Part shown: positions 8,692 through 32,900 of the stretch, piece after piece
How the letters are laid out: each line of letters opens with the position of its first letter
How positions within the stretch are numbered: position 1 is the first letter of the stretch
NCBI GenBank assembly: GCA_049510395.1
Contig: JBEKYY010000016.1
Location: forward strand, 3,095-67,094
Reading direction: 5' to 3'
DNA from: Verrucomicrobiota bacterium
Lineage (GTDB): Bacteria; Verrucomicrobiota; Verrucomicrobiia; Limisphaerales; UBA11358
Length of the DNA: 64,000 bases
Position numbers and translations under genes: made by a program
Notes under the pieces: generated by a model
Seen by the model: only the letters and a program-made list of their open reading frames with translations
Database searches by the model: none
What the model was told of the DNA's origin: nothing

Positions 8692-8697
8692 GCGCTG

Positions 8698-8730: not shown

Positions 8731-8786
8731 TCTAAAACCCGCCGTTTGACTGCAACCAATCATCAATCACCAATCATAAATCATAA

Positions 8787-8815
8787 ATAAAAAAGGCGAG
8801 GCGCGTGGCCTCGCC
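8787..8815 (-). terminator. rho-independent terminator after rpmA
   Basis: Stem GGCGAGGC/GCCTCGCC (8795..8802 / 8808..8815). On the minus strand it is followed by TTTTTT (the A-run on the + strand ending at 8794). Confidence 0.6.
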
Positions 8816-8835
8816 GTAAAATTCATCTGCGCCGG

Positions 8836-9096
8836 TCAATTCTTCGCGGCGGGTTCGGCCTTCACGTTCACGCGATGGCCGCCCTTGTCGAAGGCGATTT
8901 TGCCGTCCACCAGCGCAAAAAGCGTCCAATCGCGGCCCGTGCCGACATTTTCACCCGCCACGAACTTCGTGCCGCGCTGCCGGACGATGATGCTGCCGGC
9001 GGTGACCGCTTCGCCGCCGTACGTTTTCACGCCGAGCCGTTTGCTGACGCTGTCGCGGCCGTTGCGGACGCTGCCTTGCCCTTTCTTGTGTGCCAT
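8836..9096 (-). CDS. rpmA: 50S ribosomal protein L27
   Basis: [45 protein letters not shown]. Confidence 0.97.
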
Positions 9097-9100
9097 AAAA

Positions 9101-9130
9101 AGTTGATGGTTGAAAGTTGAGAGTTGAGAG
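9101..9130 (-). repeat. short tandem-repeat leader (CTCTCAAC units) immediately upstream of the rpmA start
   Basis: The minus strand reads CTCTCAACTCTCAACTTTCAACCATCAACTTTTT-ATG. A near-identical motif is upstream of pdxA (63323..63352). Confidence 0.6.
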
Positions 9131-9141
9131 CGTCCTTTGAA

Positions 9142-9453
9142 TTACGCCTTGATTTTCTTGATCTTGACCACCGTCAATTCCTGGCGATGTCCGATGGTTT
9201 TATGATAGCCCTCGCGGCGTATCATTTTGAAAGTAAGCTTTTTTTCGCCGCGCTTGTGCGCCACCACGTCGGCCAGCACGCTCGCGCCGCTGACCGTGGG
9301 GGTGCCGACCACGACCTTGCCGTCGCGATTGACCAGCAACACGCGGTCAAAGGTGACCGGCTTGCCGGTTTCGACGGCCAGACGTTCGATTTCCAGCGTG
9401 TCGCCCGCGGCGACTCGATATTGTTTGCTGCCTGTTTCTAGAACGGCGTACAT
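9142..9453 (-). CDS. rplU: 50S ribosomal protein L21
   Basis: MYAVLETGSKQYRVAAGDTLEIERL... from the ATG at 9453, inside the longer ORF 9142..9531. Confidence 0.95.
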   Translation of the reverse strand: MYAVLETGSKQYRVAAGDTLEIERLAVETGKPVTFDRVLLVNRDGKVVVGTPTVSGASVLADVVAHKRGEKKLTFKMIRREGYHKTIGHRQELTVVKIKKIKA

Positions 9454-13394: not shown

Positions 13395-14003
13395 TCACAC
13401 CGCCACGTCCTCCGGCCGCACTTCGAGACATTCGTCCTGGTCCTCCCAAATGACGGCGGGATAAATATTCAGCAGCTTCGGCGCGAGTTCGCGGCCCGCG
13501 CGAGCGAGCAACCGTTCGGCTTCTTCCGCGGCGTTTTCATAGGCGCGGTCGTAATCACTCGCGCGACGGCGCTGATGGTCGTCCCAATGCGCGACGGCGT
13601 GGACGGGGTCATATTGTTGCGCCCACAGATCAAGTTCGGCGCGAACGTCAGCGGAAATTTCATCGAATGGCACCAGCGTTTCGTTGCAATGCTGGCAGAT
13701 CAAACCCGACTCACGCACGTCGCGCGTAAGCAGCGGCAAAAACGGGGCGCGGCAGCACGGCGATTCCGCATAAGCCGCCGGCGGCGTGGCCAGCCGCTTG
13801 AACCAGACCTGCCGGTCGTGGGCGAGCTGCGCCGCCAGCCGGTACGCGCCGACGAGCGGGTGCGAGAGCCGCCACGCCTGGCCTTCGAGCTGACCGAGCG
13901 TTTGCGCCAGCCAGCGCCCGAGCGTGAGGTCGTCCCAGTCCCGAAACGCCCGGCCGTATCCCTTCCACAACGAGTCGAGCGGTGAATCCGATTCAAATGC
14001 CAT
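13395..14003 (-). CDS. hypothetical protein with a CC-x22-CxxC cysteine cluster
   Basis: The ATG at 14003 (MAFESDSPLDSLWKGY...) is chosen because the longer ORF would overlap the divergent MFS gene. The SPCCRAP...LICQHCNE pattern suggests a zinc ribbon. Confidence 0.45.
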   Translation of the reverse strand: MAFESDSPLDSLWKGYGRAFRDWDDLTLGRWLAQTLGQLEGQAWRLSHPLVGAYRLAAQLAHDRQVWFKRLATPPAAYAESPCCRAPFLPLLTRDVRESGLICQHCNETLVPFDEISADVRAELDLWAQQYDPVHAVAHWDDHQRRRASDYDRAYENAAEEAERLLARAGRELAPKLLNIYPAVIWEDQDECLEVRPEDVAV

Positions 14004-14123
14004 CGTCTGCAGGATGCCGCGCGCGGGGAATTTTGTCGAGCGGCGTTGCAAAAGCCGACCTTGACTGAAATCAATTCCGCCCAATAGACTCCGAGAGTTT
14101 AATGGCCGGCTTTTAAAAAGTTC

Positions 14124-15398
14124 ATGCACCACCCGGATTCCCCCAAATCTCCCGTCGGAAGATTCCGCTGGGTAATCTGTGCGCTGCTCTTTTCCGCCTG
14201 CACGGTCAATTACATGGACCGGCAAGTTCTTGGCCTGCTCAAGCCGCAGTTGTCGGAGCTTTTCAAGTGGACGGAAACGGATTATGGCCGGATGGCCATT
14301 GCGTTTCAGGCCGCCTATGCCATCGGCCAGACACTATTCGGTCCGCTCATCAACTGGATCGGCACAAAAAGCACATATGCTTTCTCGGTCGTCTTTTGGA
14401 GCCTCGCGGCCATGTCGCACTCGCTCTGCCGCACGGTGACCGGTTTTTCCCTGGCGCGTTTCGCCCTGGGCCTGGGTGAATCGGGCAATTTCCCGACCGC
14501 CATTCGCACGGTGACCGAGTGGTTTCCGCCCAAGGAACGTTCGGTGGCCACGGGCATTTTCAACACCGGCACAAACATCGGGGCAATTTTCGCGCCGCTG
14601 CTGGTTCCGTTGATCGTATTAAATCTTAACTGGCAGGCGGCGTTCATCCTGCTCGGCATGACCGATCTGGTCTGGCTGGGCTTCTGGCTGGGCTTTTACA
14701 ACGCGCCGGAAAAATCCCGGCGGGTCAGCCCGGCGGAACTGGCCCACATCAAGAGCGGCGCGGCGGCAACGGCGGAGCAAAAAATCCCATGGATGAAGCT
14801 GCTCGGTTATCGCGAAGCGTGGGCCTATTACGGCACATGTGTGCTCGTCGGGCCGGTCTGGTGGTTTTACGGTTTCTGGCTGCCCGACTTCTTCAGCAAG
14901 CAATTCCATCTGAGCCTGAAACAATTCGGCCTGCCCTTGGTGGTGGTTTATACCGTCACCGCCCTGGGCAGCATCGGCGGTGGCGGTTTGTCGGCGTGGT
15001 TTTTGAAATGCGGCTGGTCGGTGAACCGGGCGCGCAAGATGGCTTCCCTGCTGTGTGCATGCTGCACGCTGCCGGTGATTTTCGCGCCGCGCGTGGACAG
15101 CGTATGGCTGGCGACGGCTTTCTTTGCCCTGGCTGCCGCAGCGCATCAAGGCTGGTCGGCCACGATGTACACGGTCGTCTCGGACATCTTTCCCAAGCCC
15201 GCGGTGGCATCCGTGGTCGGTTTCGGCGGCACACTGGCGTCGTTGATGTCCATGGGGTTCTTCTGGCTGGTCAGCACCATATTGCAGGGTGAAGGCACTT
15301 ATCGTAACATCATGCTGATTTGCGGCAGCGCGTATATCGTGGCCTGGCTGATATTCCACGTGGGTGTGCCGCGCATCAAACCCGTTCGAGTCGAATGA
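14124..15398 (+). CDS. MFS transporter (hexuronate/ACS-type)
   Basis: 12-TM pattern, NYMDRQVLGLLKPQL...DYGRMAIAFQAAYAIGQ, adjacent to the GH43 gene. Confidence 0.85.
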   Translation: MHHPDSPKSPVGRFRWVICALLFSACTVNYMDRQVLGLLKPQLSELFKWTETDYGRMAIAFQAAYAIGQTLFGPLINWIGTKSTYAFSVVFWSLAAMSHSLCRTVTGFSLARFALGLGESGNFPTAIRTVTEWFPPKERSVATGIFNTGTNIGAIFAPLLVPLIVLNLNWQAAFILLGMTDLVWLGFWLGFYNAPEKSRRVSPAELAHIKSGAAATAEQKIPWMKLLGYREAWAYYGTCVLVGPVWWFYGFWLPDFFSKQFHLSLKQFGLPLVVVYTVTALGSIGGGGLSAWFLKCGWSVNRARKMASLLCACCTLPVIFAPRVDSVWLATAFFALAAAAHQGWSATMYTVVSDIFPKPAVASVVGFGGTLASLMSMGFFWLVSTILQGEGTYRNIMLICGSAYIVAWLIFHVGVPRIKPVRVE

Positions 15399-15417
15399 CC
15401 TGCGCGTGAAAGCTTCC

Positions 15418-16992
15418 ATGCCCAACGAATCATTGAAACAATCGCCTGCGTTCCGTTATCCCTGGATTCCCGACCAGAAGGATGGAACATTTTGCAACCC
15501 GATTATTTATGCGGATTATTCCGACCCCGATGCGATTCGTTTTGACGACGATTTTTACCTGGTTACTTCCAGTATCAATTGCACGCCGGGACTGCCGATC
15601 CTGCACTCGAAGGATTTGGTGAACTGGACGATCATCAATCACGCCGTCAAAAACCTGCCGCATCCGCGTTATGCCGAAGTGCAGCACGGCTGCGGCGCAT
15701 GGGCGCCCGCCATCCGATTTTACAACGGCAAATTCTGGATTTTCTTCTCCACGCCGGATGAAGGCATTTACATGACCACGGCCGACCATCCTGCGGACAC
15801 GTGGTCTGAACCTCATCTGGTGCAGGCCGGCAAAGGTTTGATTGACCCCTGTCCTTTCTGGGATGACGACGGCAATGCCTATCTGGTTCACGCCTATGCC
15901 AGCTCGCGGATGGGCATCAAACACATTCTTCGGGTGCGCCCGATGGCACCCACCGGCTCGCGGTTGCTGGGTGAAGGGCAAATGGTTTTTCACAATCCAG
16001 AACAGCACCCGACCCTCGAAGGTCCAAAGTTTCTGAAGAAGGACGGCTGGTATTATATCCTTGCTCCCGCCGGCAGCGTGCAAACCGGATGGCAAGTCGT
16101 CCTGCGTTCACGAAATATTTTTGGCCCTTACGAAGATAAAATCGTGCTGGAGCAGGGAAGCACATCCATCAACGGGCCGCACCAGGGCGCGCTGGTTGAC
16201 CTGCCGAACGGCGAGTGGTGGTTCCTTCATTTCCAGGACGTCGGGGCTTATGGGCGGGTCGTCCACCTGCAACCAGTCAACTGGAAGGACGGCTGGCCGC
16301 TCATGGGACGGGACCTGGACGGCAACGGCATCGGCGAACCGGTTTTGCACTGCCAGAAACCGGCCATCGGGCACGGCTCGTCAGTTGCCATCCCGCAAAC
16401 CAGCGACGAATTCGATTCCCCCGCCCTTGGCCTGCAATGGCAATGGCACGCGAATTTTTCCGAAAAATGGTTCTCGCTCTCGGCGCGAGAAAGCCGGCTG
16501 CGGTTGTTTTCCGTGCCGATGCCTGCAAAAGCCACCAATTTCTGGCCCGTTCCGAATTTGCTGCTGCAAAAACTGCCCACGCCGAAATTCACCGCCACGA
16601 CGGAACTTGATTTCAGCCGGCTGGCCGTTGGCGGGAAGGCCGGACTTATTGTCATGGGCATGGATTATTCGTATCTCGCGGTGGAGAGAACGGCGGCAAA
16701 TTTTCGGTTGATCAAGGCCACAGGCAAAGACGCACGGAAAGGTGCTGCAGAAGTCATCGAAGCCGAAACGGAATGTGCCGGCGATTCCATCCTTCTGCGC
16801 GTCGAAGTTGATGAAGGCGCACTGTGCAATTTCAGTTTCAGCCGCGACGGGGAAAAATTTTCTGCGATGGGCAAAAATTTCACCGCTCGCGCAGGCCTCT
16901 GGATTGGCGCAAAAGTCGGACTCTTCTGCCTGTCAACTGACGCGGAAAAGAAATCCGGTCATGCGGATTTTGCCTGGTTCAGATTCAGCTGA
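15418..16992 (+). CDS. glycoside hydrolase family 43 (beta-xylosidase/alpha-L-arabinofuranosidase-like) with C-terminal beta-sandwich
   Basis: NPIIYADYSDPDAIRFDDDFYLVTSS, WAPAIRFYNGKFWIFF, and LEGPKFLKKDGWYYIL (catalytic Asp/Glu contexts typical of GH43). Confidence 0.9.
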   Translation: MPNESLKQSPAFRYPWIPDQKDGTFCNPIIYADYSDPDAIRFDDDFYLVTSSINCTPGLPILHSKDLVNWTIINHAVKNLPHPRYAEVQHGCGAWAPAIRFYNGKFWIFFSTPDEGIYMTTADHPADTWSEPHLVQAGKGLIDPCPFWDDDGNAYLVHAYASSRMGIKHILRVRPMAPTGSRLLGEGQMVFHNPEQHPTLEGPKFLKKDGWYYILAPAGSVQTGWQVVLRSRNIFGPYEDKIVLEQGSTSINGPHQGALVDLPNGEWWFLHFQDVGAYGRVVHLQPVNWKDGWPLMGRDLDGNGIGEPVLHCQKPAIGHGSSVAIPQTSDEFDSPALGLQWQWHANFSEKWFSLSARESRLRLFSVPMPAKATNFWPVPNLLLQKLPTPKFTATTELDFSRLAVGGKAGLIVMGMDYSYLAVERTAANFRLIKATGKDARKGAAEVIEAETECAGDSILLRVEVDEGALCNFSFSRDGEKFSAMGKNFTARAGLWIGAKVGLFCLSTDAEKKSGHADFAWFRFS

Positions 16993-17374
16993 CTGCTCGC
17001 CAAGGATTTAACCACGCCCCGTGAGGATGGCCCATCAATCATCAAACAGCCGTCTGTCGGTTTCTGCCACCGAATGAATAATATCGACAACCTTTCGCCG
17101 GGGGCAACGGTTGGCTTGTGTGACTTGCAATTATCATTGTTCTTTTCCCAGACACCTCCTGTCTTGAAGACTTTTTCGTCCGAACCGGATGGGATGCCGC
17201 TAATTGAGGCATGGTGGCAAAAAAATAATCGCAAGCATTTGACCTCCGCGTTGAAAGTATCGGTTTCTGTATCAATTTAGGAGTTCCCCTTGTCCCAAAG
17301 TTTGCAACCCGTTTCCAAAAGTTTCATGCGCGCCCCGCTGTCACGTTGGCAAGTCTTATGCGTAAAGAACCCCC

Positions 17375-18001
17375 GTGCTGTATCCAGTGGAAGTATTTCT
17401 TCGGTCAAGACGTGCCGTTCTTGGTTCTTTTCTCTTCAGCGTCTCTTTTGCAGTTATGCAACTTTCAGCCTTCGCAACCGGAAGTGTAACGTTGGCGTGG
17501 AACGCAAGCACTTATCCAAACGTCGCGGGTTACAACGTTTATTACGGAAGAGCCAGCGGCGCCTATACCAACAAGATTTGTGCCGGCAACGCAACAAATG
17601 CAACCATTTCCGGCCTGGTCCAAGGAACCACCTACTATTTTGCGGCGACAACGTATGCTTCTTCGGGCACGGAAAGTCCGTTCTCAAGTGAGGTGTCTTA
17701 TCTGGTCCCGGTTCTGGTGACCATGAATTGTTCGAACGTTTATGTCACTGCTGTCCATACAAACTTTTTTCGGTTCTGGACAAACATATCGTCATCTGGA
17801 AAAATAATTATCAGGCCGCTCCCGCCGACTTGGACGAACTCAGTTTTCGTTGGCTTCTGGATTTACCCTCCTCCGTCAGGAGGGTGGACGCTCCAATCAA
17901 GTTCGAACCTGCTGACATGGTTCAATTACGCCACCATCACGAACGCGGTGTTCGTTCCCAACATCGGCGGTGATTGGTATTTCCGGTTCAAAGCGCCCTG
18001 A
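17375..18001 (+). CDS. secreted fibronectin type III domain protein with a C-terminal W...YFRF module
   Basis: SVTLAWNASTYPNVAGYNVYYGRASGAYT...ATISGLVQGTTYYFAATTY (FN3). The tail is ...SSNLLTWFNYATITNAVFVPNIGGDWYFRFKAP. The GTG start is uncertain and G+C is lower. Confidence 0.6.
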   Translation: MLYPVEVFLRSRRAVLGSFLFSVSFAVMQLSAFATGSVTLAWNASTYPNVAGYNVYYGRASGAYTNKICAGNATNATISGLVQGTTYYFAATTYASSGTESPFSSEVSYLVPVLVTMNCSNVYVTAVHTNFFRFWTNISSSGKIIIRPLPPTWTNSVFVGFWIYPPPSGGWTLQSSSNLLTWFNYATITNAVFVPNIGGDWYFRFKAP

Positions 18002-18100
18002 CTTGTCGAAACGGGGGTAAATATACCGAAAATTGGTGTCCGTTTTGGTGTCCGTTGCGGATGCCCTGGCTCCTAAGCCATTACTACACACACAGTTGGA

Positions 18101-18126
18101 AATGGAGCCAATGGCCGGGATTGAAC
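18101..18126 (-). repeat. duplicated 3' end of tRNA-Thr (att-like direct repeat)
   Basis: aatggagccaatggccgggattgaac is identical to 22205..22230, which is the T-loop to CCA end of the intact tRNA-Thr. Confidence 0.85.
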
Positions 18127-18237
18127 TGAGTTCAACGATTCAGTGCCAAGATAATGGCGGGTTTCATTGGGAATCCAAGAAGAATGCGTCCTAACTTGTC
18201 ACTATTTTTCTTAACTCTGTCAGTGCTTTCACTGACA
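18124..18237 (+). repeat. 114-bp direct repeat, copy A (pairs with 22047..22160)
   Basis: actgagttcaacgattcagtgccaagataatggcgggtttcattgggaatccaagaagaat...cactatttttcttaactctgtcagtgctttcactgaca, with only a handful of mismatches between the copies. Confidence 0.85.
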
Positions 18238-18385
18238 GTTTCACTGACAGTTGTTAAAACTGAATGCGAAAGGACGGCGAAATCGTCCCAGCCTCATCCG
18301 GCCGTATTAAGTCAATGGTGTCATGTGTCGGTCTACTGATTGATGACCAGATTGACATCATCGCTGCAAAGCAGCGAGGGTGCTC

Positions 18386-19573
18386 TTAGAAGTCAGGCTG
18401 TAAAAACACGGCTGGCTTCAACACGGTTGTGTTCTTCCGGCGTGCGGATGCATAGGCAAGAATAGCCTCGGTCGCTTCCACATCGCCATTGATTTCAAAA
18501 GCCAGCGGCATCGTTTTGCGTCCGATCCAACAATCCTGCCGGTACATTTCCAGAAGGCGATCCAACACATTCTGCCCCGTGACACTGAAGCCCAGACCGA
18601 GATCGGACGCGAGGCTGGCATTGACGAATTGCTCGGCGTGGCCGGGCACGGGCAGAACAAAGGTGGGTTTGCGAAAGGCAAAACCTTCCGAGAGCGCGGA
18701 ATAACCGCCGTTGATGACCAAGGCGTCAGCGCGGGCGAGCAACGCGATGTTGTTCATCTGACGACCGTAAAACGTTACGTTGCCGTGCGATTCACCTGAC
18801 CGCCCAACAACTTCAACGGCGAAGGGAAATTGGCGGTCGTTGAAATTGATCTGGGTGGCATGCACCGAGCCGCTCAACATGAAAACAACCTTGCGGAGTT
18901 GGCGTGGCGACAAGGCTTCTTTGGGTAAAGCGGCCGCTGCCAGTTCCTTGACGGCGGGGCGGACGATCAGGCCGATACGACGGAATTTTGGATGACGGGT
19001 CGGCGTGCGAACAGGAAAGGGACTCAACACCAGATCACAATAATGCCGGTGGAACAAATAGTCGGAAAACTCAACCAGCCAAAAATGGCTTCTGACTCCT
19101 TTCGCCTGGCGGCGGCGCTTGAGAAACTCGGTCACAACCACTTCCGAATTGTTGATGGCGATGATGGGAATGCGACGGTGACGGAGCGGGGAAATGGCGT
19201 ATTCGGAGTCAACCACCGCGATATCTGGATTCACTTTATCAAGCAACTGTGCCAAAGATTTGCGCTTGGCTTTGGCCAGTTTGGCCAGGGAACCGACGGA
19301 CTTGAGCGTGGCCCAGCCGCTAATGCCGTCAGCGGATTTGGAATAATAGAATGATTCCATCGAGCAAAGGGACTCGATGCATTTTTTGCCCTCAAAATAA
19401 GCCAGGCCGTTTCCCGAAGTCAGCACGTGAACACGGCAACCGGCCGTGGCAAGTCGTTCGATGACTGCGTGACAGCGAGTGCTGTTGCCAAGGCCAAGGC
19501 CATTGATGACGAACAGACAGGAAGTGGTCACCCCGGGATGAAACATTGTCCGCTTGACAAAAGCAACAAACAT
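18386..19573 (-). CDS. GT-B fold glycosyltransferase (MJ1255/TIGR00661-like, GT28/GT1 type)
   Basis: LFVINGLGLGNSTRCHAVIERLATAGCRVHVLTSG (N-terminal G-rich loop) and the C-terminal ...INGGYSALSEGFAFRKPTFVLP nucleotide-sugar motif. The start could be the internal M at 19546. Confidence 0.7.
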   Translation of the reverse strand: MFVAFVKRTMFHPGVTTSCLFVINGLGLGNSTRCHAVIERLATAGCRVHVLTSGNGLAYFEGKKCIESLCSMESFYYSKSADGISGWATLKSVGSLAKLAKAKRKSLAQLLDKVNPDIAVVDSEYAISPLRHRRIPIIAINNSEVVVTEFLKRRRQAKGVRSHFWLVEFSDYLFHRHYCDLVLSPFPVRTPTRHPKFRRIGLIVRPAVKELAAAALPKEALSPRQLRKVVFMLSGSVHATQINFNDRQFPFAVEVVGRSGESHGNVTFYGRQMNNIALLARADALVINGGYSALSEGFAFRKPTFVLPVPGHAEQFVNASLASDLGLGFSVTGQNVLDRLLEMYRQDCWIGRKTMPLAFEINGDVEATEAILAYASARRKNTTVLKPAVFLQPDF

Positions 19574-19626
19574 TCCGAATAAGCAGTGAAGTACATCTGC
19601 ACTCCAAACCGACGCAAGGACGTAAA

Positions 19627-20415
19627 ATGATTGTATGCGCCGATGATTATGGCCTGCGCGAAGACATCGACCGGGCGATTCTCGAACTTTGCAGCCTCAA
19701 CAAATTGAGCGCGGTTTCCTGCATGGTGTTGTTCAAACGATGCGACGCCAAAGTGTTGGGGGGGTTGCTCGCGCACCAGGCAAAGGTGGACATCGGCCTG
19801 CATCTTTGTCTGACCGATGAGGAGTTGCCTTTGGCGCTTCCGCCGCCAGAACGCAAACTTCCTGAATTTAAATCGTTGTTCCGGCACTCCATGCTCGGAA
19901 GAATCAACCCGCAGGACATTTTTCGGCAGATCTCAGTTCAATATGAACTTTTCGTCACGAAATGCGGACGACGTCCGGATCATATTGACGGGCATCTGCA
20001 CGCGCATCAATTGCCCGGCGTGCGCGTGGCTTTGGCGGATTTTGTACGGAGCCTGCCGCCTGAACACCGCCCGTATGTCCGCAATACGCGGATGTCAATT
20101 GGCGCAATCCGCCGTCAAAAACTGCCTTGGATGAAAGCTGTTTTTATCGGCGTGTTCGGCAGGCGGATGCAAAGCGTCCTGCGTGCGGTGAATGCGCCGA
20201 CCAATGACGGTTTCGCCGGCATTTATGATTTCAAACAATGGCGCAGATACCCCGGCTATCTGCCAAAATTCGCAGATTGCCTGCGTGAGCCAAATGGAAT
20301 CCTGGTCGTTCATCCCGGCTTTGAAGAAGACTGGCGCCGTCAGGAGTTTGAAAGCTTGCGGAACCTCGCGGTGCTGGACGGACGATTAAACCGTTTTCAA
20401 CATTCATCGTCGTGA
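19627..20415 (+). CDS. ChbG/HpnK/YdjC-family carbohydrate deacetylase
   Basis: MIVCADDYGLREDIDRAILEL..., DIGLHLCLTDE, and PDHIDGHLHAHQLPGV. Confidence 0.85.
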   Translation: MIVCADDYGLREDIDRAILELCSLNKLSAVSCMVLFKRCDAKVLGGLLAHQAKVDIGLHLCLTDEELPLALPPPERKLPEFKSLFRHSMLGRINPQDIFRQISVQYELFVTKCGRRPDHIDGHLHAHQLPGVRVALADFVRSLPPEHRPYVRNTRMSIGAIRRQKLPWMKAVFIGVFGRRMQSVLRAVNAPTNDGFAGIYDFKQWRRYPGYLPKFADCLREPNGILVVHPGFEEDWRRQEFESLRNLAVLDGRLNRFQHSSS

Positions 20416-20427
20416 GATGACCGTCTT

Positions 20428-22056
20428 TTACGGCTTGGCCGGGACAGCGACCAGTGCAATACCGTGTTTACGGTAGGCGACGGCTGGATTATCAAGCTTA
20501 ACCTGGTCGGCCAGGACGATTTTGTAGATCGACACGGGCGGCTGACTCACCGAAAACAAGCCGCTCTCACGTTCACGGATGGCAACATATTGACAAATCT
20601 GGCGGGGATAATAATAATCGGGTCCGGGCTTTGGAGCGATCGCCTGCATATACCCGTCGTCTTCCACTTGTATCCGCTGGTTTTTACCGGCATGAGTTTT
20701 CAGAGTTTGGTAAACAGTTTCGAGCTTGTGAAAACTTGGGAGAAACAGCGTTCCTTGCTCGATGCATTTTCCCTGATACCGGTATAGGGTCAAAACAAGC
20801 CAGACATTGGCGCAAAGTGTTGCCAAAAGCATGGTTAGAAAAATCTGCCGGATCCTCTGCCTGGACAGCCATCGAACGGCCGCCACCGCCGTCAGGGAAA
20901 ACAAAGGAGCAAGTAACACTATGCAATAACGGACGTGAAAACGGTTCCCTCCCACCAAGTATGTCATCAGCGGCCCGGCAAAAATGATCGTTAAAAAAAA
21001 CAGCCCCGGTGATCGGGCAAAAGCCGCGCGTGGCGACCGCCAAAAACCGCGCAGGGCTGCTCTGGCTTCCACCAAGGCCCCAAGCACCAATGATGCCGCC
21101 AGGATTATTGACGCCGCATTGAAAGCCAGCAGCAGGCTGAAACTGCCGAAGCAGATCCGACCGATCTCTCGATATTCATCGCGCCCAAAGGGCCATCGCG
21201 GGTCCCAGTAGTTGATCAGAAAACCCAGTGGCGCACTGAAAATCTTGAACGCCTCCCTGGAATATCCGTGGTGTCCGCCGGAAATCATATCACGGGTATT
21301 CTCCCAGCCGTGGGCCATTTCCCCGAAAATATACGGCAGATAAAGCGCCAATCCGGCGACAATGCCGCCAACCAACCACGGAACGTTCAGTCGCGTCGGC
21401 TTCAACCAAAGTACCAGGATTATCGTCGGGATCAGCATTAGTCCGGACATGTGAAATTGCAGCATCATCAGCGGCAGGAACAACAACCAAAATGCAGCTC
21501 GCGAACGATCCTGCTGCACCACCTGCCATAACGCGAGAAACAAGCAGGCCCCCAAAAAGGACATGACCCCCGGATTGAAGACAATGATGGAGAATTCAAT
21601 CGCCGCAGGTGAAGTGGCCATGAGCAAAGCCGCCCACAGCGCTGCGGAAAATCCAACTGTTCGAGCCGCCAGCAAATACGTCAGATAAATGGCGGCTGTG
21701 TTCAACAAAAGGATCGCCCAAACTACTCCATCAATTGACCCCCAAAGACGCAGTCCGGCGGCACAAAACATTGCCCATAGCGGGCCGGGAAGTTTGGCGT
21801 GTTCATTGAACTTGGGCAGGCCGAAATTGGGCTGGCCAATATATTGTGCACGCGGCTCACCTTGGGCATAGTCCACCGCCACACTGTAAGCATCCAAGCA
21901 GTCCACCTGCGAGGCGTAGCAAAAAGCCTGTCCCCACGTCATCCCGGCGATCCGCAAACCAAGCCCCAACAGTAAAATCAATAATAACCAAAGCCCGGTG
22001 TATTTTGACCTTTTGCCGTCAGTCAAAGTTGATGGTTCGGTTTGGACTGAGTTCAA
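20428..22056 (-). CDS. GT-C fold membrane glycosyltransferase (ArnT/PMT, GT39/GT83-like)
   Basis: At least 10 TM segments, an early periplasmic loop with acidic residues (VDCLDAYSVAVDY), and a C-terminal soluble domain. The listed start is TTG and there is no upstream ATG before TM1. Confidence 0.7.
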   Translation of the reverse strand: MNSVQTEPSTLTDGKRSKYTGLWLLLILLLGLGLRIAGMTWGQAFCYASQVDCLDAYSVAVDYAQGEPRAQYIGQPNFGLPKFNEHAKLPGPLWAMFCAAGLRLWGSIDGVVWAILLLNTAAIYLTYLLAARTVGFSAALWAALLMATSPAAIEFSIIVFNPGVMSFLGACLFLALWQVVQQDRSRAAFWLLFLPLMMLQFHMSGLMLIPTIILVLWLKPTRLNVPWLVGGIVAGLALYLPYIFGEMAHGWENTRDMISGGHHGYSREAFKIFSAPLGFLINYWDPRWPFGRDEYREIGRICFGSFSLLLAFNAASIILAASLVLGALVEARAALRGFWRSPRAAFARSPGLFFLTIIFAGPLMTYLVGGNRFHVRYCIVLLAPLFSLTAVAAVRWLSRQRIRQIFLTMLLATLCANVWLVLTLYRYQGKCIEQGTLFLPSFHKLETVYQTLKTHAGKNQRIQVEDDGYMQAIAPKPGPDYYYPRQICQYVAIRERESGLFSVSQPPVSIYKIVLADQVKLDNPAVAYRKHGIALVAVPAKP

Positions 22057-22160
22057 CGATTCAGTGCCAAGATAATGGCGGGTTTCATTGGGAATCCAAG
22101 AAGAATTCGGTCTAACTCGCCACTATTTTTCTTAACTCTGTCAGTGCTTTCACTGACACT
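22047..22160 (+). repeat. 114-bp direct repeat, copy B
   Basis: See 18124..18237. It overlaps the first codons and upstream region of the GT-C gene and ends 46 bp before tRNA-Thr. Confidence 0.85.
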
Positions 22161-22206
22161 TGACCTCCTTCGCATCTCAACCTGTTGGAAAATCTCCACT
22201 TAAGAA

Positions 22207-22281
22207 TGGAGCCAATGGCCGGGATTGAACCGGCGACCGACGGTTTACGAAACCGTTGCTCTACCGCTGAGCTACATTGGC
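22207..22281 (-). tRNA. tRNA-Thr (anticodon CGU)
   Basis: The reverse complement folds by hand as GCCAATG-TA-GCTC..GAGC-A-ACGGT-TTCGTAA-ACCGT-CGGTC-GCCGG-TTCAATC-CCGGC-CATTGGC-T-CCA. Confidence 0.9.
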
Positions 22282-22493
22282 TTGAGTCTGTCAACAAACC
22301 CGCACGATTTGAGTTTTACCTATTTTGGCGGAGTTAAAATGAACGGCAAGTCAATTCGACAGGCGCCCGCCCCCGGCTGTCGCGGGCGCCGCCGCCAAAC
22401 ACCATCGGCGAATGAGCTTGCCCCTGACGCAAACGCACGCACAATGTGTTCGCTCGGAACGCAGCACAATGCGTCTTCAGGAGCGGCTTGCGT

Positions 22494-22583
<90 letters not shown>

Positions 22584-22879
22584 CCTGTCCAAAGCAGGCG
22601 CTATCCAGCGTGATGACCCCGTCCACCTTCTTGAAACCTTCCGGCAACGCGTGTTCTCTCTGAAAGTAAGAAACATGATTTTCGCGCCGGGGGAATTTCC
22701 CCGGACCACGTGAACGGCGGGTGCGGGAAGTCGTCAGACTGTTTGCCGCAAACCGGCAGGCCACATCGAATTGTCCGCGCTTTGCGCGACCGTCGTCCGA
22801 AAGCGGATGCCGGCGTCCAGCCGGATGGCATCCGATTTGTAACAGGTAACAACTTTCAAATGAACATTTTGCAAACCGT

Positions 22880-23920
22880 TCAAGCCGGCTTTTTCCGCAG
22901 CACTTCGGCAATTTGAATGAACGCCCGCCCCGCCGGTTTTCCCGGCGCGGACACCACCACCGGCACGCCGCGGTCGCCGCTTTCGCGGATTTCAGTGAAA
23001 ATCGGCACTTCGCCGAGGAACGGAATGTCCTGCCGTGCGGCCTCGGCCTGGCCGCCGCCGTGACCAAAAATCTCCACGCGCTCGCCGTTGGGCGTGGTGA
23101 AATAACTCATGTTCTCGATAATGCCGAGAATCGGCACGTTGACCTTCTTGAACATCGCGATGCCCTTGCGCACGACGCCGAGCGACGCTTCCTGCGGCGT
23201 GGTCACGATAATCCCGCCGTCCAGCGGCACGGCCTGGCACAGCGAGAGTTGCGCGTCGCCCGTGCCCGGCGGCAGATCCACGAGCAGGAAATCCATCTCG
23301 CCCCATTCCACCGCGAACAGAAATTGCTGGATCGTCTTTGAAATCATCGGCCCGCGCCAGATCACCGGCTGGTCGTTCTCAAGCAACAGCCCGATGCTCA
23401 TCACCTTCACCCCGTGATTGGACGGCGGCACGAGCCGCTCGTCGTCGCTGACCGTCGGACGCTCGTGAACGCCCATCATCAGCGGAATGCTCGGCCCGTA
23501 AATGTCGCAATCCAGCAGGCCGACCCGAGCGCCCAGTTGTTTCAACGCGCAGGCCAGGTTCACCGAGCAGGTGGATTTGCCGACACCACCCTTGCCGCTG
23601 GCGATGGCGATGACGCGCTTTACCCCCGGCACCCGGTTTTGGTTCGCCAACGCACCCGTGGGCGTCGCCTGCCCGGCGGCGGGTTGTTTGACTTCGACGT
23701 TGACGAGTTTCACCCCGGGCAGCGCCTTCAAAACCCGTTCACTGTCTTCCTTGATTTGGCGTGCGGCTTCGGGATTCGATGTGGTCAGTTGCATCACGAC
23801 GCTGATTCCGCCTTGCGGCACGGAAATTTCCTTGATGAGCCCAAAGGAAACAATGTCGCGCGAATAGCCGGGATACTTGACGGCCTTCAGCGTGTTTTTG
23901 ATGTCGTCTTGTGTTGGCAC
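22880..23920 (-). CDS. apbC: Mrp/NBP35-family Fe-S cluster carrier ATPase with N-terminal DUF59
   Basis: IAIASGKGGVGKSTCSVNLA (deviant Walker A), a CxxC-like LCQAV region, and an N-terminal DUF59 segment. The start is GTG. Confidence 0.9.
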   Translation of the reverse strand: MPTQDDIKNTLKAVKYPGYSRDIVSFGLIKEISVPQGGISVVMQLTTSNPEAARQIKEDSERVLKALPGVKLVNVEVKQPAAGQATPTGALANQNRVPGVKRVIAIASGKGGVGKSTCSVNLACALKQLGARVGLLDCDIYGPSIPLMMGVHERPTVSDDERLVPPSNHGVKVMSIGLLLENDQPVIWRGPMISKTIQQFLFAVEWGEMDFLLVDLPPGTGDAQLSLCQAVPLDGGIIVTTPQEASLGVVRKGIAMFKKVNVPILGIIENMSYFTTPNGERVEIFGHGGGQAEAARQDIPFLGEVPIFTEIRESGDRGVPVVVSAPGKPAGRAFIQIAEVLRKKPA

Positions 23921-25685: not shown

Positions 25686-26141
25686 ATGTTTGAAGACTTA
25701 AATGATCTTTACCAGCAGGTCATTCTTGACCACTGCAAGAAACCGCGGAATTTCCATGAGATGCCGCAGGCAACTTGCTCGGCGCAGGGACACAACCCGC
25801 TCTGTGGCGATCGGTTGCAGCTTTTTCTCGCGCTGGACGGCGACACCATCAAGGACATCAGCTTCGTCGGCGCCGGCTGCTGCATTTCCAAGGCGTCGGC
25901 CTCGTTGCTCACGGAGTTTGCCAAGGGCAAAACGAAGGCGGACGTGGGAAAAATGTTCGGCCAAGTCCATGAAATGGTCATGACCGGCAACGTTCAGGGC
26001 GACGTCGGCAAGCTGGCGGTGTTCGCCGGCGTTTATAAATTCCCCGCGCGGGTGAAATGTGCGATTTTGTCGTGGCACGCCGTCATGGCGGCGCTCAAGG
26101 GCGATCCGAAGCCGGTGACGACAGAGTCAGAAGAAACTTAG
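25686..26141 (+). CDS. sufU: SUF-system NifU/IscU-type scaffold (SufU)
   Basis: LYQQVILDHCKKPRNFHEM...GHNPLCGDRLQLFL...FVGAGCCISKASASLL...CAILSWHA. Confidence 0.9.
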   Translation: MFEDLNDLYQQVILDHCKKPRNFHEMPQATCSAQGHNPLCGDRLQLFLALDGDTIKDISFVGAGCCISKASASLLTEFAKGKTKADVGKMFGQVHEMVMTGNVQGDVGKLAVFAGVYKFPARVKCAILSWHAVMAALKGDPKPVTTESEET

Positions 26142-26152
26142 AGCTCCGCGGC

Positions 26153-27646
26153 ATGAACGAGCGACATTCAGCCAAGTCCATTTCGCCGCCGGACAAAACG
26201 GCATCATCGGATGAGGGGAGCAAAAAACCTTCTGGGCTTTCACGGAAGTTCTACAAGCCATTATTCATCGTTTTGTTTGGTCTTGCGGTGGTTGTGAGGG
26301 CGTTGCTTTGTTGGGTAAATCCTCCTACAAATTCCTTTGATGATCATTTCCAGCCCATTTTCATGATTATCAAATCAGGCATTATTCCCGCAAAGAACGC
26401 CTGTTTTCAATGCTATCATCCGCCGGTTTTTTATTGGATATCGGCGATGATTGGGAAATTGGCACTCCATGCGGGGGTATCTTGGCCGCAGATGATAAAA
26501 CTTTTGCAATTTGTCTGCTGTTTCTATGGAATACTGACTGTCGGCATCTGTTACATGATTCTTAAAAAATTCCCCCTCTCCAACTTTTCCCGGCTGCTGG
26601 CTTTTGGAACTGTGTGTTTCCTGCCCAGGCACATCTACATGTCCGCCATGAATTCAAATGACACCATATCGTATCTATTTGTGGCACTCTCGATATACCT
26701 GGTCATCATTGCATGGGAACGAGAGCTTTCCCCATGGAGTCTGGGCGCGCTAAGTGTAGTCCTCTCGATCACCCTATTCACCAAGTACACAGCCTTCGTG
26801 GTCATACCGACGGTATTGACCCCGTTCACCATGGCTTTTCTCAAGCGGCTGGTCATTCCACGAAAGAAGGTTTTGATATCGGCAATCAGCATCTTGGTGT
26901 TGCCGATGTCCCTCCTGACGGCCTACATGTTATCCAACGTAAAACACTACCAGAGCCCATTACCATGGAACGTCACGATATTCGATCCAAGTCATAGACC
27001 CCGTGATGCCGGAGGCATCAGTTTTTTCACGTTCAAACCATGGGAAGATATAAAGACTCCTATGTTGGCTCCCGGTAAACTGCATTCCTTTTGGACGCTT
27101 ATTTACAGCGGGATGTGGTTCGATACCGAACCTTATTTCCTGCGTTTCCTGGATTCAAATGACAACTGGTGGAAGCGTTACTACGGATGGTACGGGCGGG
27201 AAGAAAACTATCCCGACGAAAATCCTCCCTTTTCCGATCTCACGATTTTGGAGGCGTCCGGCCTGATTACCCTGGGGCTTTTCCCTTTGTTTCTCATGCT
27301 GATCGGCTTTTGTTATTGTGTCAAATATCCCATCCTTGGGGGCGGTTTGGTTCAGACCACCCCGACAGAAAGAATTGGCTTTGGAATGTTTCCCATACTG
27401 GTGTTGTTCAATGCGGCAGGAATCATTGCGCTGACTTTGAGATTGCCGGTCTATAGTTCAATGAAACCATCCTATTTCCTCGGTGCAATGCCTGCATTCA
27501 TGATATTCCTCAGTTTGGGGATCATGCCCTGCGAAAGGAATGAAACAATTAAACGGGTAATTCTTGTAACGTTTGGCGCTCTGTTTACGCTCGCAATCAT
27601 ACATATTCTTCACATCGTTTTCGCCATTCGTTGCACTCAGTTGTGA
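26153..27646 (+). CDS. GT-C fold membrane glycosyltransferase (GT39/PMT_2-like), lower G+C, inserted within the suf cluster
   Basis: About 12 TM segments and an early loop NPPTNSFDDHFQP (DxD/E-type loop). The ATG at 26153 is inside ORF 26057..27646. Confidence 0.65.
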   Translation: MNERHSAKSISPPDKTASSDEGSKKPSGLSRKFYKPLFIVLFGLAVVVRALLCWVNPPTNSFDDHFQPIFMIIKSGIIPAKNACFQCYHPPVFYWISAMIGKLALHAGVSWPQMIKLLQFVCCFYGILTVGICYMILKKFPLSNFSRLLAFGTVCFLPRHIYMSAMNSNDTISYLFVALSIYLVIIAWERELSPWSLGALSVVLSITLFTKYTAFVVIPTVLTPFTMAFLKRLVIPRKKVLISAISILVLPMSLLTAYMLSNVKHYQSPLPWNVTIFDPSHRPRDAGGISFFTFKPWEDIKTPMLAPGKLHSFWTLIYSGMWFDTEPYFLRFLDSNDNWWKRYYGWYGREENYPDENPPFSDLTILEASGLITLGLFPLFLMLIGFCYCVKYPILGGGLVQTTPTERIGFGMFPILVLFNAAGIIALTLRLPVYSSMKPSYFLGAMPAFMIFLSLGIMPCERNETIKRVILVTFGALFTLAIIHILHIVFAIRCTQL

Positions 27647-27781
27647 AACAACCTCCCCTTGGGAAACCGGGCCGAACTGGGAAGGAACCCGTTGGAGACG
27701 AACTCGTTGAGCAACCAGACGAATGGGTGCGGGGTCAACTTCTCCAGAGACAACCGGCGTGAAATCAGTTATTCTTTTCTC

Positions 27782-28333
27782 ATGAATAACACTGAGCCAA
27801 AAACTTTGACCCGCGACGTCGAAGCCTCCGTGGTGCCCGTCGGGACGAAGGTCACGCTGCAAAAGGGCGGGCTGGCCTATGTCATGCAATCGCTCGGCGG
27901 CAATTATACCGTCGTCGTCAACGGCAACATGTTCCGCATTGACGGCAAGGACGCCGATGCGCTCGGCCTCGACGTGCATCCCAAACCGGTGGCGGCCACC
28001 GGCGGGCCGGTAACGCAGGACGAACTGGAAAAACAGGTCTGGGAAACACTCAAGACTTGTTACGACCCTGAGATTCCCATCAACATCGTGGACCTCGGCC
28101 TGATTTATGACTGTCACCTCACGTCCGTGGGCGAAAACAGCTACAAGGCCGATGTGAAAATGACTTTGACCGCGCCCGGCTGCGGCATGGGGCCGGCGCT
28201 CGCGCAGGACGTGCAAAACAAGTTGATGAGCATGGAGCCTATTGACGAGGCAAACGTCGAGCTGGTCTGGGATCCGCCGTGGAACCAGAGCATGATGACC
28301 GAGGCGGCCAAACTGCAACTCGGGCTGATGTAG
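27782..28333 (+). CDS. sufT: SufT-like DUF59 Fe-S assembly protein
   Basis: The C-terminal DUF59 reads VWETLKTCYDPEIPINIVDLGLIY...MTLTAPGCGMG...VELVWDPPW. The N-terminal extension is as in TIGR03406-type SufT. Confidence 0.8.
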   Translation: MNNTEPKTLTRDVEASVVPVGTKVTLQKGGLAYVMQSLGGNYTVVVNGNMFRIDGKDADALGLDVHPKPVAATGGPVTQDELEKQVWETLKTCYDPEIPINIVDLGLIYDCHLTSVGENSYKADVKMTLTAPGCGMGPALAQDVQNKLMSMEPIDEANVELVWDPPWNQSMMTEAAKLQLGLM

Positions 28334-29647: not shown

Positions 29648-29932
29648 ACCAGTCATGAAAATCGTAAAGCAATCCATGACTTGCTTCAGTTAACAACGTC
29701 CAATTGAGTAGATCAGCCAACATCTGATTTTCACTCATTCCCCTCGCATGACCCAGCCTTTGGTGGGTTCTCACCAAGCAAAGAGACAAGCGGAAGCAAC
29801 CCAATCATCAATTTCCCAAGATTTGAAACCGATGATAACAACCAAACCAAGCGCCGCTGTCATTAGGTGCATATTTTTCGTGACATTTCCGGCTAAATTT
29901 GTTCTTATTATCAATTGCAGCTGGAATTAATC

Positions 29933-32900
29933 ATGCGCTTCGTAAGCAGAACATTGCCGATGCTCGTTGGTGCGGGTAAAACAAGTGACGCCAGCAAACG
30001 ATTCAGTGTCGGAGCTTTAGTAGTTCTGTTTCTCTTTTCCGCGACTCCGGTCCGGTCAGCAGAAAGACAATTGCTTCGCAATCACATTCCTGCAGTCACT
30101 TCGAAATTGCGGCCGGTGGACCGACTCGCAAGCTCGAAGCGTTTAAATCTTGTATTTGCGCTGCCGCTGCGCAACCAAAAGGCACTCACCAATCTGCTCC
30201 AGCAACTCTACGATCCGACGAGTTCCAATTACCGACAGTACCTGACGCCGCAGCAGTTTGCCGAGAGGTTTGGACCGACCGAACAAGACTATCGCGCTGT
30301 CATGGATTTTGTGAGAGCGCAGGGTTTGACTGTGACCGGAACACATCCCAACCGCACATTGTTGGACGTGAGCGGAACGGTTGCGGAAATCGAAAGTGCA
30401 TTTCATGTCAACCTGGTGGTTTACAATCACCCGATCGAAGCCCGGACGTTTTATGCACCGGATGTTGAACCTTCGATCGACCTGACGGTTCAAGCATTGG
30501 AGGTGGTGGGCCTCGATGATTATGTTATGCCGCGTCCGATGTACCACCAAATGGCAACTCCCCTTGTGCAAGCCAATGAGACGAAGCCCAACGTCGGCTC
30601 AGGACCTGGCGGGACATTTATGGGCAACGATTTCCGGGCAGCCTACATTCCGGGCATTGCGCTCACTGGCTCAGGGCAGAAGGTTGGCCTGTTAGAATTT
30701 GATGGATACTTTACCAATGATCCAGTCCAATATGCGATCCAAGCCGGTCTGACGAACATTCTGACGATCACCAATGTGCTGGTGGACGGATTCGACGGCA
30801 CCCCTGGTTCCTACAATGTTGAGGTTGCCTTGGATATCGAAATGGTCATGTCCATGGCTCCGGGAGCTCAGATTATCGTCTATGAAGGTTCCATCACCAC
30901 ACCAACAATTATCATAGATCTCTTGAACCGTATGGCGACCGATAATCTGGCCCAGCAATTGAGCGCTTCCTGGACGTATCATACGGGGCCGGCGATGGAG
31001 CAGGTTTTTCAGCAAATGGCAGGGCAAGGACAATCGTTTTTTAATTGTTCCGGAGATCATGATGCTTACAGCGGAACAGTAACCACGCCGGCGGATGACC
31101 CGTATATCACAATCGTAGGGGGGACGACTTTGACGACCAGCGGGCCTGGAAGCAACTGGGTGTCAGAAACCTGCTGGAACTGGGGCAACGACATTGGAAG
31201 TGGCGGTGGAATCAGTACAAGCTGGGCAATTCCGTCATGGCAACAAGGCATTAATATGTCGAGCAATAATGGTTCAACGACCATGCGGAACCTCCCTGAC
31301 GTTGCGATGGTGGCGGACAGGGTTTATGCCATCGCCGACAACGGCGCGCCGCAGTATCTGGGCGGCACAAGCATTTCGACTCCGCTCTGGGCAGCGTTTA
31401 CGGCGTTGGTCAATGAGAAGGCGGGGCTTCAAGGCAAGCAACCGGTCGGTTTTGTCAATTATGCCCTCTACGCCATTGGCCAAGGAACGAATTACAACAC
31501 GGCATTCCACGACATTACGACCGGCAACAACACAAACAGCAACAGTCCAAACAACTTTTTCGCCGTGCCAGGCTACGACCTTTGCACAGGTTGGGGAACC
31601 CCGACACCAAACTTGATTGATGCCATGCTCAACGTCCAGTTCGTCATTCCAAATGGCTGGACACTAACGAGCCTGCCAAATGAAGATTGGTCTGGCGTCG
31701 CCTCTTCAGCAGACGGCACTAAGTTGGTTGCAGTAGACTTGTCTGGAGGACATCAGATCTATGTCTCGTCTTCATCAGGAGTGATTTGGCGGCCCTATGG
31801 GCCGGCAGCAAGCTGGCGCGGAATTGCCTCCTCCGCCGACGGAACTAAATTGGCCGCGGCACCGTGGTATGGCTCCATTTACATCTCGACAGATTCCGGT
31901 GTCACATGGACAGCGACGACTTCACCTTCCTATTCGTGGCGTTCGATGGCCTCTTCGGCCGATGGAACCAAATTGGCTGCGGGGGCATTCTGGGAAGGGG
32001 TTTTTGAAGTTTCGACCAATTCAGGTGCAACTTGGATGGCATCCAGCATGTCTGGCAGTATAAATTGGATGCCAGTCGCTTGGTCAGCAGACGGCGGCGT
32101 GTTGGTGGCTGCTTGTGGTAGTACGGTTTATGTATCAACCAATTCAGGCGCCACAAGCAGGTCAACTACCTTGCCGGGAATGAATTGTACATCTGTGGCT
32201 TCGGCGGCGGATGGCTCCAAACTGTTTGCTGCTGGAGGTTCCATTTACATATCCACAAACCTGGGGGCGAGTTGGACAATTTCCGGGCCCGCTTCCGGGG
32301 CGGGATTAGTGGCGTGTTCCGGAGATGGCTACAGACTTGCAGCCGTATCGGACCAAGTTTACATTTCAGACGATGGAGGGACAACTTGGACGTGTGTCGG
32401 ACCACGAACGCCCCCCACATATATGAGTTGGTCGACGATCGCCTGTTCTGCTGATGGAAGCAGATTAATCGCGGCAATAGAGGATTATTATGATGGGCCG
32501 GTTTACACAGGCGTGTTTCCCCGAAGTGGACCAATCATCACGACGCCCCCCGCCAATCAGGCGGCCGTCGTCGGCAGCGACGCGGTGTTCAGTGTGGTTG
32601 CCATTGGCCCTCCGCCTTTGACTTATCAGTGGAGTTATAACGGAACAAATATTTTGGGTGCCACCAACAGTTGGTTAATCTTGACCAATGTGCAATTCAG
32701 CCAAGCCGGCTATTACGGTGTGCAAGTGAATGACGTTTATGGTTCACGTTTCAGTCCCAACGTGGCGCTGACGGTTGTTCCACCGCCGGTAACAATTCTG
32801 GTCCAGCCGACAAATCAAACAGCGGTTCTGGGCACCGCAGTGCGTTTCACCGTTACCGCGCTCGGCACGCCGCCGTTGAGTTACCAATGGTTGTTCAACG

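Follow-up and report, generated by a model that had tools for sequence, protein, structure and literature searches.

This study concerns a block of three genes inserted at a transfer RNA (tRNA) gene in a 64-kb stretch of DNA, here called the window (64,000 nucleotides (nt) of contig JBEKYY010000016.1, assembly GCA_049510395.1). The block extends over positions 18101-22230, and its genes, referred to together as the trio, encode a predicted membrane glycosyltransferase (GT) of the GT-C fold, a YdjC-family de-N-acetylase and a second GT of the GT-B fold. The host is one uncultured Limisphaerales (Verrucomicrobiota) species from peat, and in this lineage alone the block, which is non-autonomous, was inserted at the 3' end of tRNA-Thr(CGU). 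The features of the locus are collected in Table 1; handles such as L112 denote other contigs used for comparison.

Table 1. Features of the insertion and of the adjoining DNA, in window positions (aa, amino acids; ORF, open reading frame).
Feature	Position	Strand	Remarks
MFS transporter and GH43 module of the variable region	14124..16992	+	Present in L107 (93% nt identity); lacking in L105/L106 and L101
FN3 module, an older member of the array beside the block	17030..18100	+	68-aa ORF (17074-17280) and FN3 gene (17456-18001)
Displaced copy of the tRNA-Thr 3' end	18101..18126	-	24 nt + TT
Left 114-nt copy	18127..18240	-	Truncated duplicate of 22048-22161
54-nt filler	18241..18294	-	Hairpin arm re-copied in tandem over 12 nt where the filler meets the left 114-nt copy
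Native downstream flank of GT-B	18295..18385	-	Hairpin CGCTGC-TTT-GCAGCG; homologous to L112-L114, partly to L096 and L108
GT-B glycosyltransferase	18386..19573	-	PF13528; TIGR00661 below cut-off
YdjC-family de-N-acetylase	19627..20415	+	262 aa; PF04794, E = 8e-38; N-terminal DDYG and HxH motifs
GT-C fold membrane glycosyltransferase	20428..22056	-	542 aa from TTG at 22056; alternative TTG at 22026
Right 114-nt copy	22048..22161	-	Native leader/promoter-proximal region and first GT-C codons
43-nt spacer (U43), native intergenic DNA upstream of the operon	22162..22204	-	Homologous to the sequence after the T2SSE stop in L112-L114
Proximal copy of the 26-nt repeat	22205-22230	-	Last 24 nt of tRNA-Thr + TT
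Intact tRNA-Thr(CGU)	22207..22281	-	ARAGORN and Rfam (anticodon printed CGT)
tRNA-Ser(CGA)	22494-22583		ARAGORN and Rfam

A lineage-specific insertion at tRNA-Thr

The 26-mer AATGGAGCCAATGGCCGGGATTGAAC, the complement of the last 24 nt of tRNA-Thr plus TT, was found without mismatch at both borders of the block (18101-18126 and 22205-22230), which bears out the duplication of the tRNA 3' end reported in the preliminary description of this DNA. Even with three mismatches allowed, the 24-nt tRNA part had two matches in the window, and shuffled sequences gave an expectation of zero. The block thus has the direct repeat of a tRNA 3' end at both borders that marks islands at tRNA genes, exact over 26 nt and with none expected by chance. 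The displaced copy is followed by TCCAACTG, the tRNA trailer known from the empty sites described below. No family other than tRNA was matched by Rfam in the window.

The same structure was present in 10 contigs with an identical YdjC protein, obtained from separate JGI and ENA samples. Nine of them span both ends, while L009 stops within the GT-C gene. As the repeat and junction sequences were 100% matched in contigs from separate samples, the structure is not an assembly artefact.

Metagenome contigs were scanned with an empty-junction pattern composed of the left flank, the tRNA core and the tRNA continuation, a pattern that is absent from the window. The scan yielded seven contigs. Related contigs have the FN3 gene directly after tRNA-Thr, with no trio between, in agreement with the insertion at the tRNA 3' end that had been proposed. 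Empty sites were found in four related contig types (L107, L105/L106, L101 and L103). In L107, the order is tRNA-Ser, tRNA-Thr and then directly the FN3 region (80% identity to 18126-17044) and GH43 plus MFS genes (93% identity to 17028-13795). In L105/L106, the FN3 module stands next to tRNA-Thr; beyond it, 24 nt of the tRNA end recur without mismatch (CAATCCCGGCCATTGGCTCCATTT), followed by a homologue of window 14053-12709. In L101 and L103, an Ig/LamG surface-protein gene occupies the place at tRNA-Thr. Because relatives show the empty site, the 4.1-kb block is a lineage-specific insertion and not an ancient fixed locus.

The latter possibility, that tRNA-Thr, the operon, the FN3 gene and both repeats are ancestral and were inherited together, would fit the lack of polymorphism among the YdjC-identical contigs, all of which share the structure. 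It is refuted by the empty sites. Moreover, the Mrp/ApbC gene (22880-23920) led to 80 species-level relatives, all of them Verrucomicrobiota/Limisphaerales metagenome-assembled genomes (mostly from peat and soil), and in 0 of the 80 did the trio or the tRNAs lie beside Mrp. The closest relatives of the trio are located elsewhere and have no repeats, and no relative was found with the same gene order and both repeats, an arrangement which the preliminary description had named as evidence for a fixed locus. This reading is accordingly considered highly improbable.

In this clade, modules without an integrase form a variable array downstream of tRNA-Thr; the trio is the tRNA-proximal one, in the window species only. 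The FN3 module was also found in L098-L100, with no tRNA. It is a discrete unit of about 1.07 kb (window 17030-18094; L098/L099 7577-8641; L100 7731-8638; L105 1294-2636), and occurs at 79-82% nt identity in unrelated contexts, once behind a Zot-containing inovirus-like gene block. A repeated motif, AACGGACACCAA, was observed near its tRNA-side end (window 18033-18056). When FN3 was used as a synteny anchor, no empty site was obtained; it is a multi-copy module in unrelated contexts.

In the window, 212 nt separate tRNA-Ser from tRNA-Thr (22282-22493), against about 700-800 nt in relatives (L107 5596-6403, L103 555-1244), in which the spacer holds a DUF3568 gene that was lost in the window lineage. 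One peat metagenome, Ga0182027, contained both the trio in another context (T2SSE|lpxC, L112, Ga0182027_10006848) and the empty tRNA-Thr pattern (L104, Ga0182027_10315777). L104 ends about 40 nt beyond the empty junction, and the two contigs could come from one organism.

Chromosomal origin of the inserted DNA

A single high-scoring segment pair, at 84% identity, aligned the window from 22211 to 18295 with the chromosomal segment of L112-L114 that lies between the T2SSE ATPase gene and lpxC/fabZ-lpxA. The match begins exactly after the T2SSE stop codon, covers the 43-nt spacer that had seemed unique, and runs 90 nt beyond GT-B. This alignment shows that the cargo was copied from an ordinary chromosomal operon, flanks included (18295-22211). 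The inserted block consists of three pieces: the native segment (18295-22204/22211), the 54-nt filler, and a 114-nt partial second copy of the head of the segment. No source of the filler was found in the window or at any locus examined. The earlier suggestion of an integrative element that had lost its integrase is not upheld, as the 43 nt beside the tRNA and the 90 nt past GT-B are native flanks of the operon in L112-L114.

Homologues of GT-C and GT-B in Verrucomicrobia formed a graded series from 89% to 45% identity, and contexts were retrieved for twelve of them. The order and orientation of the trio were constant in all contexts, and the neighbours differed. Counting the window, at least nine contexts were distinguished. 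The trio adjoins GtrA in an LPS (lipopolysaccharide)-type cluster with GT9, GT2 and MsbA-like genes (L091) and, together with GT1, GT2 and GT9 genes, in L092/L093. In L094, prophage-like genes adjoin it at one end, and NusG, Bac_transf and Wzz at the opposite end. It lies beside MarR and efflux genes in L096 and between two FGE-sulfatase paralogues in L097, and has ManC and GtrA upstream and BipA downstream in L108-L110. It is found with lpxC/fabZ-lpxA and AspRS in L111, and with the T2SSE ATPase upstream and lpxC/fabZ-lpxA and Lnt downstream in L112-L114. This recurrence, together with the LPS- and lipid A-type neighbours in relatives, agrees with the inserted envelope-modification cassette that had been proposed. 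In none of the eight other contexts did a tRNA adjoin the trio, and no significant remnant of an attachment (att) site was detected at it in these tRNA-free contexts.

In a neighbour-joining tree of the YdjC and GT-B DNA, the window grouped with L097, L091 and L096 at 5-6% divergence, so that four contexts fall within one shallow clade; the lpxC-linked copies, L108 and L092 were placed outside it. The synonymous divergence (dS) of the trio against L096 and L097 was 0.13-0.15, compared with 0.20-0.30 for housekeeping genes against the nearest species representatives. This lower value hints at recent movement or exchange of the trio, although the contigs could not be assigned to genomes. The ratio of non-synonymous to synonymous divergence was 0.17-0.56 and the three ORFs are of full length, which indicates that the genes are working.

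Direct repeats of local DNA bracket the trio in two of the other contexts as well. In L092 (8144-8271 and 12809-12936; the same in L093), a stretch of 128 nt from the 3' end of a 587-aa gene recurs beyond the trio at 81% identity, and in L097 the bracketing FGE-sulfatase paralogues (8236-9408 and 13914-15029) are 76% identical over 1.2 kb.

The 114-nt repeats and the leader hairpin

The two 114-nt copies differ at six positions (95% identity), and their first 59 nt are identical, for which the chance expectation is 0. The 114-bp repeat of the preliminary description is therefore real, with coordinates that were about 3 nt off and a distance to the tRNA repeat of 43 rather than 46 nt. The right copy carries a perfect 9-bp hairpin, CTGTCAGTG-AAAG-CACTGACAG. 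The corresponding stretch is kept upstream of GT-C in L091, L096, L097, L108 and L112, with no tRNA nearby. Each copy in the window is the closest match of the other, at 95% identity compared with 83-93% to the orthologues, and as the left copy is nearest to the right one, it arose in the window lineage. To judge from these comparisons, the longer repeat is the duplicated start region of the operon itself and not an arm of a mobile element. The idea that the repeats flank an att core as element arms was consequently dropped: GT-C has its native leader and start in the right copy, of which the left one is a lineage-specific partial duplicate. The sequence GTCCAAACCGAACCAT, beside the right repeat, was considered as a decayed or older 16-nt att core and was rejected, since it is native GT-C coding sequence in every relative.

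Homology between copies of the trio was observed to stop within a few nt of the base of the 9-bp leader hairpin in L096 (about 4622), in L097 (about 9871) and at the left 114-nt copy; the window positions concerned are 22138-22158 and 18217-18237. This suggests that the hairpin base may be a recurrent breakpoint. A promoter and terminator scan gave uninformative output.

Joints of the block and proposed mechanism

At the proximal joint, the native flank starts with CTCCATT, which equals the last 5 nt of the tRNA plus TT and gives 7 nt of microhomology. At the distal joint, the left copy ends in ...TTGAACTCA and is joined to GTTCAATCCCGGCCAT, where the native continuation would be GTCCAAACCGAACCAT; the two sequences share GT and match at 11 of 16 positions in fixed register (about 6e-4 by a binomial estimate with p = 0.27). 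The left 114-nt copy starts at a 12-nt tandem re-copy of the hairpin arm. Because every joint has microhomology or a short re-copied stretch, the reading of the whole that is favoured here, with about an even chance of being correct, is that microhomology-mediated template switching, or else illegitimate recombination, installed the block at the tRNA gene. Departure from the tRNA at CTCCATT would have been followed by copying of the operon segment, addition of the filler, re-priming at the hairpin, copying of the 114 nt, and re-entry into the tRNA 26 nt upstream of the departure point. On this path, the 26-nt target duplication would simply result from that re-entry.

Several observations weigh against template switching. 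The stretch that is duplicated runs from the T-loop to 2 nt past the 3' end, which is where tyrosine integrases that target tRNA genes classically have their att region. In L105/L106, a different module, FN3, has a 24-nt duplicate of this tRNA end at its border, and repeated events at a single site would be expected of a site-specific recombinase. Four switches would be required, and the 54-nt filler is without an identified template. The 5% difference between the 114-nt copies implies that the event was not recent or that two alleles were involved. Finally, the integrase search covered 64 kb of the genome, and an integrase may exist elsewhere.

These points lead to the main rival on mechanism, a serious one although it is judged rather unlikely, namely integration in trans as in an islet resembling a cis-mobilizable element (CIME). 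A circle with the full tRNA core between the left 114-nt copy and the 43 nt plus the right copy would have been inserted by a tRNA-Thr-specific tyrosine integrase encoded elsewhere, and the block would be excisable in principle. The perfect 26-nt duplication, the like duplication at the FN3 module and the precise empty site would all be expected from such an event, and the integrase-less modules arrayed at one tRNA agree with CIME accretion (PMC5704250). Nevertheless, no integrase was detected in the block (as originally reported), in the neighbouring modules, in the alternative modules of the relatives, or among 20 further large ORFs of the window. The tRNA core was not found in IMG/VR contigs, nor was the leader hairpin (0 matches). 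A sliding scan for att remnants downstream of GT-B in L112, beside T2SSE, after FN3 in L098 and at about 14.1 kb of the window gave nothing above background, and elsewhere the trio has no flanking att remnants. What borders the cargo is native chromosomal DNA and not that of an element; illegitimate joints would be needed to build the attP-like region in the first place (the 114-nt copy to the core at the look-alike, and the 7-nt CTCCATT); and the filler and the 12-nt re-copy would be left unexplained.

Two further candidates were set aside. A resemblance of the U43 spacer to the tRNA trailer of the empty site was not significant, and an integron-cassette reading was dropped, as the block has three genes in two orientations with a leader of their own; attC-like ends were not noted, with no formal test aimed at them.

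As a more speculative proposal, to which we attach little weight, Limisphaerales may shuffle promoter-to-terminator modules such as the trio and FN3 between sites without a module-encoded recombinase, with a preference for the tRNA-Thr 3' end and with recurrent breaks at the base of the perfect hairpin that heads the leader of the trio. Relocation could then follow an unrecognised mechanism, hairpin- or tRNA-directed and either host-encoded or coupled to replication, and the look-alike of the tRNA core in the start of GT-C would be a pseudo-site.

The three genes and their predicted function

For the GT-C protein, the Pfam PMT_2 match was sub-threshold, no NCBIfam model matched, and sequence and profile searches of the PDB gave no match. 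Its AlphaFold model (pLDDT 85, pTM 0.89) had ArnT as the best PDB structure match, followed by STT3/AglB, Pmt4 and ALG12, with a template modelling score of about 0.5 at 11% identity. Asp52, which follows the first transmembrane segment, is invariant. The YdjC protein matched a chitooligosaccharide deacetylase in the PDB (E = 4e-9), and weakly the ChbG and HpnK models of NCBIfam. For GT-B, only sub-threshold NCBIfam matches were obtained (MJ1255/VC2487, MGT and MurG); its model (pLDDT 85.5) was closest to GT1 macrolide/UDP-glycosyltransferases and MurG, in agreement with the profile search. The folds assigned in the preliminary description, the YdjC family and the GT-C type therefore hold, with a GT-C sequence match that is sub-threshold only. 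Among the families it had put forward for checking, PF04794 was found for YdjC, TIGR00661 stayed below its cut-off in favour of PF13528, and PMT_2 remained sub-threshold.

From the folds and the gene neighbours, it is predicted that the operon probably adds an amino sugar to the outer-membrane LPS. The GT1/MurG-like GT-B would act at the cytoplasmic face, where it would attach an N-acetyl-hexosamine to a lipid carrier or lipid acceptor, and YdjC would then remove the acetyl group. A GtrA-type flippase, the gene of which adjoins the trio in several relatives and is absent from the window copy, would carry the product across the membrane. GT-C would finish the transfer on the periplasmic side, most likely onto the lipid A-core/LPS. 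The neighbours of the trio in relatives (lpxC/fabZ-lpxA, GT9, the MsbA-like ABC transporter and Lnt) appear to favour an LPS or lipid A target. Two points count against this pathway: its evidence consists of folds and neighbours, and we know of no GT-B of this family that makes a polyprenyl-phosphate sugar.

The order of glycosylphosphatidylinositol (GPI) anchor synthesis is a GT-B enzyme, a de-N-acetylase and GT-C mannosyltransferases, and this parallel counts for the main functional rival, a GPI-like pathway to a glucosamine lipid. Here, GT-B would put N-acetylglucosamine on a membrane lipid (a phospholipid, diacylglycerol or hopanoid), YdjC would deacetylate it and GT-C would extend it periplasmically with a separate polyprenyl-phosphate donor, so that the product would be a glucosamine (GlcN) glycolipid and not a lipid A decoration. 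The nearest structures of GT-B are GT1 enzymes that glycosylate lipophilic small molecules, and MurG; the module has no GT2 synthase for undecaprenyl-phosphate sugars; the weak match of YdjC to HpnK is to a hopanoid deacetylase; and ManC, for GDP-mannose synthesis, adjoins the module in L108. However, the adjacent lpxC/fabZ-lpxA, GT9 heptosyltransferase-like and MsbA-like genes point to LPS instead, ArnT is the best structural match of GT-C, and a GtrA-type flippase candidate suits lipid-linked donors as in Gtr systems (PMC11127046). The GPI-like pathway is for these reasons regarded as doubtful, and amino-sugar addition to LPS is retained.

Other features of the window

Synteny with the 80 Mrp relatives extends from window position 22847 to past 42000 and breaks off directly after Mrp. 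Within 10 kb of Mrp, no tRNAs, trio, FN3, GH43 or MFS genes were found in these species. As an anchor, Mrp thus exposed a synteny break at about 22583-22850, between tRNA-Ser and Mrp, rather than an empty site, and the left half of the window is joined to the suf region by a lineage-specific breakpoint. In L107, which has the same tRNA pair, MoxR, DUF58 and transglutaminase genes stand on the far side of tRNA-Ser in place of Mrp.

A second GT-C-type gene (PMT_2, 529 aa; 26057-27646) lies within the suf operon, between NifU and an FeS-assembly gene. The corresponding insertion (about 26118-27782) is absent from all close relatives aligned, and no direct repeats were found flanking 26118-27782; flanking repeats are therefore not a general signature. 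A further window-specific insertion relative to close relatives (29648-35911) holds an ORF of 1847 aa (29915-35458). The same protein is encoded in L001/L002, where the gene call lists pro-kumamolisin, Ig and LamG Pfam domains. The ORF at 5105-6757 has SIR2-like and protein kinase domains, an architecture which recalls anti-phage defence proteins.

Comparison with known systems

In the block, a chromosomal operon with a partial copy of itself has been relocated to a tRNA end where non-autonomous modules accumulate. Accounts of microhomology-mediated break-induced replication (MMBIR) and template-switch insertions usually concern amplifications and rearrangements in E. coli and eukaryotes, and to our knowledge neither process has been described as a route by which operons are placed at tRNA 3' ends. 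The block resembles their products in its joints with 2-12 nt of microhomology, its templated partial duplication, its filler and its short target duplication. It differs in the recurrence at one tRNA end (L105), which would not be expected from MMBIR.

CIMEs and their tandem accretion at tRNA genes (PMC5704250) provide the second comparison. Like a CIME, the block lies between two copies of the 3' end of its target tRNA gene, with attL- and attR-like borders kept and genes for integration and transfer absent, and it stands in tandem with small integrase-less modules. A CIME, however, is a decayed integrative and conjugative or integrative and mobilizable element, whereas the present block is a chromosomal operon with native flanks (43 nt upstream and 90 nt downstream, of the T2SSE|lpxC type), and no remnants of element genes were seen in it. 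Its joints show microhomology, filler and partial self-duplication, and the analysis turned up no related element with an integrase. A duplicated tRNA 3' end alone does not, then, mean a decayed integrative element, and if this is general, some integrase-less islands at tRNA genes would arise without site-specific recombination.

Francisella FlmF2/FlmK and E. coli ArnC/ArnD/ArnT are parallel aminosugar systems. Among the lipid A systems, LgmA/B/C of Bordetella adds GlcN (PMC4993483), and NaxD with its partners in Francisella and Acinetobacter adds galactosamine to lipid A (PMC9431647). The trio has a deacetylase of the YdjC family, to which NaxD and LgmC belong, its GT-C is structurally nearest to ArnT, and lipid A/LPS genes lie beside it in relatives. 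In contrast, its GT-C is without a sequence-level ArnT/PMT assignment, and no flippase gene is present in the window copy. Since the cytoplasmic enzyme is a PF13528 GT-B of the GT1/GT28 (MurG)-like kind, and not a GT2 (GT-A fold) polyprenyl-phosphate sugar synthase of the ArnC/LgmA/FlmF2 type, the trio is not a member of these systems, and the ArnC/Flm logic originally proposed does not apply to the first enzyme. What is defined here is a conserved, uncharacterised module of Verrucomicrobia, composed of GT-C, YdjC, the GT1-like GT-B and, in some genomes, GtrA. As it resembles lipid A amino-sugar systems but starts with another enzyme, it may represent a new way in which abundant peat bacteria decorate their envelope with cationic groups. 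Neither this lesson nor that for the annotation of tRNA-associated islands is established, and the scope of both is moderate.

Classical gtr clusters are often prophage-borne. The Gtr-type periplasmic systems comprise a GT2 synthase (GtrB), a flippase (GtrA) and a GT-C enzyme (PMC11127046). The trio departs from them in having an extra deacetylase step and no GtrB-type GT2, and GtrA is missing from the window copy. It is like them in being compact and located at variable genomic places, in its GT-C, which is predicted to act outside the cytoplasm, and in the GtrA-family gene that lies directly upstream of it in L091, L092/L093 and L108-L110.

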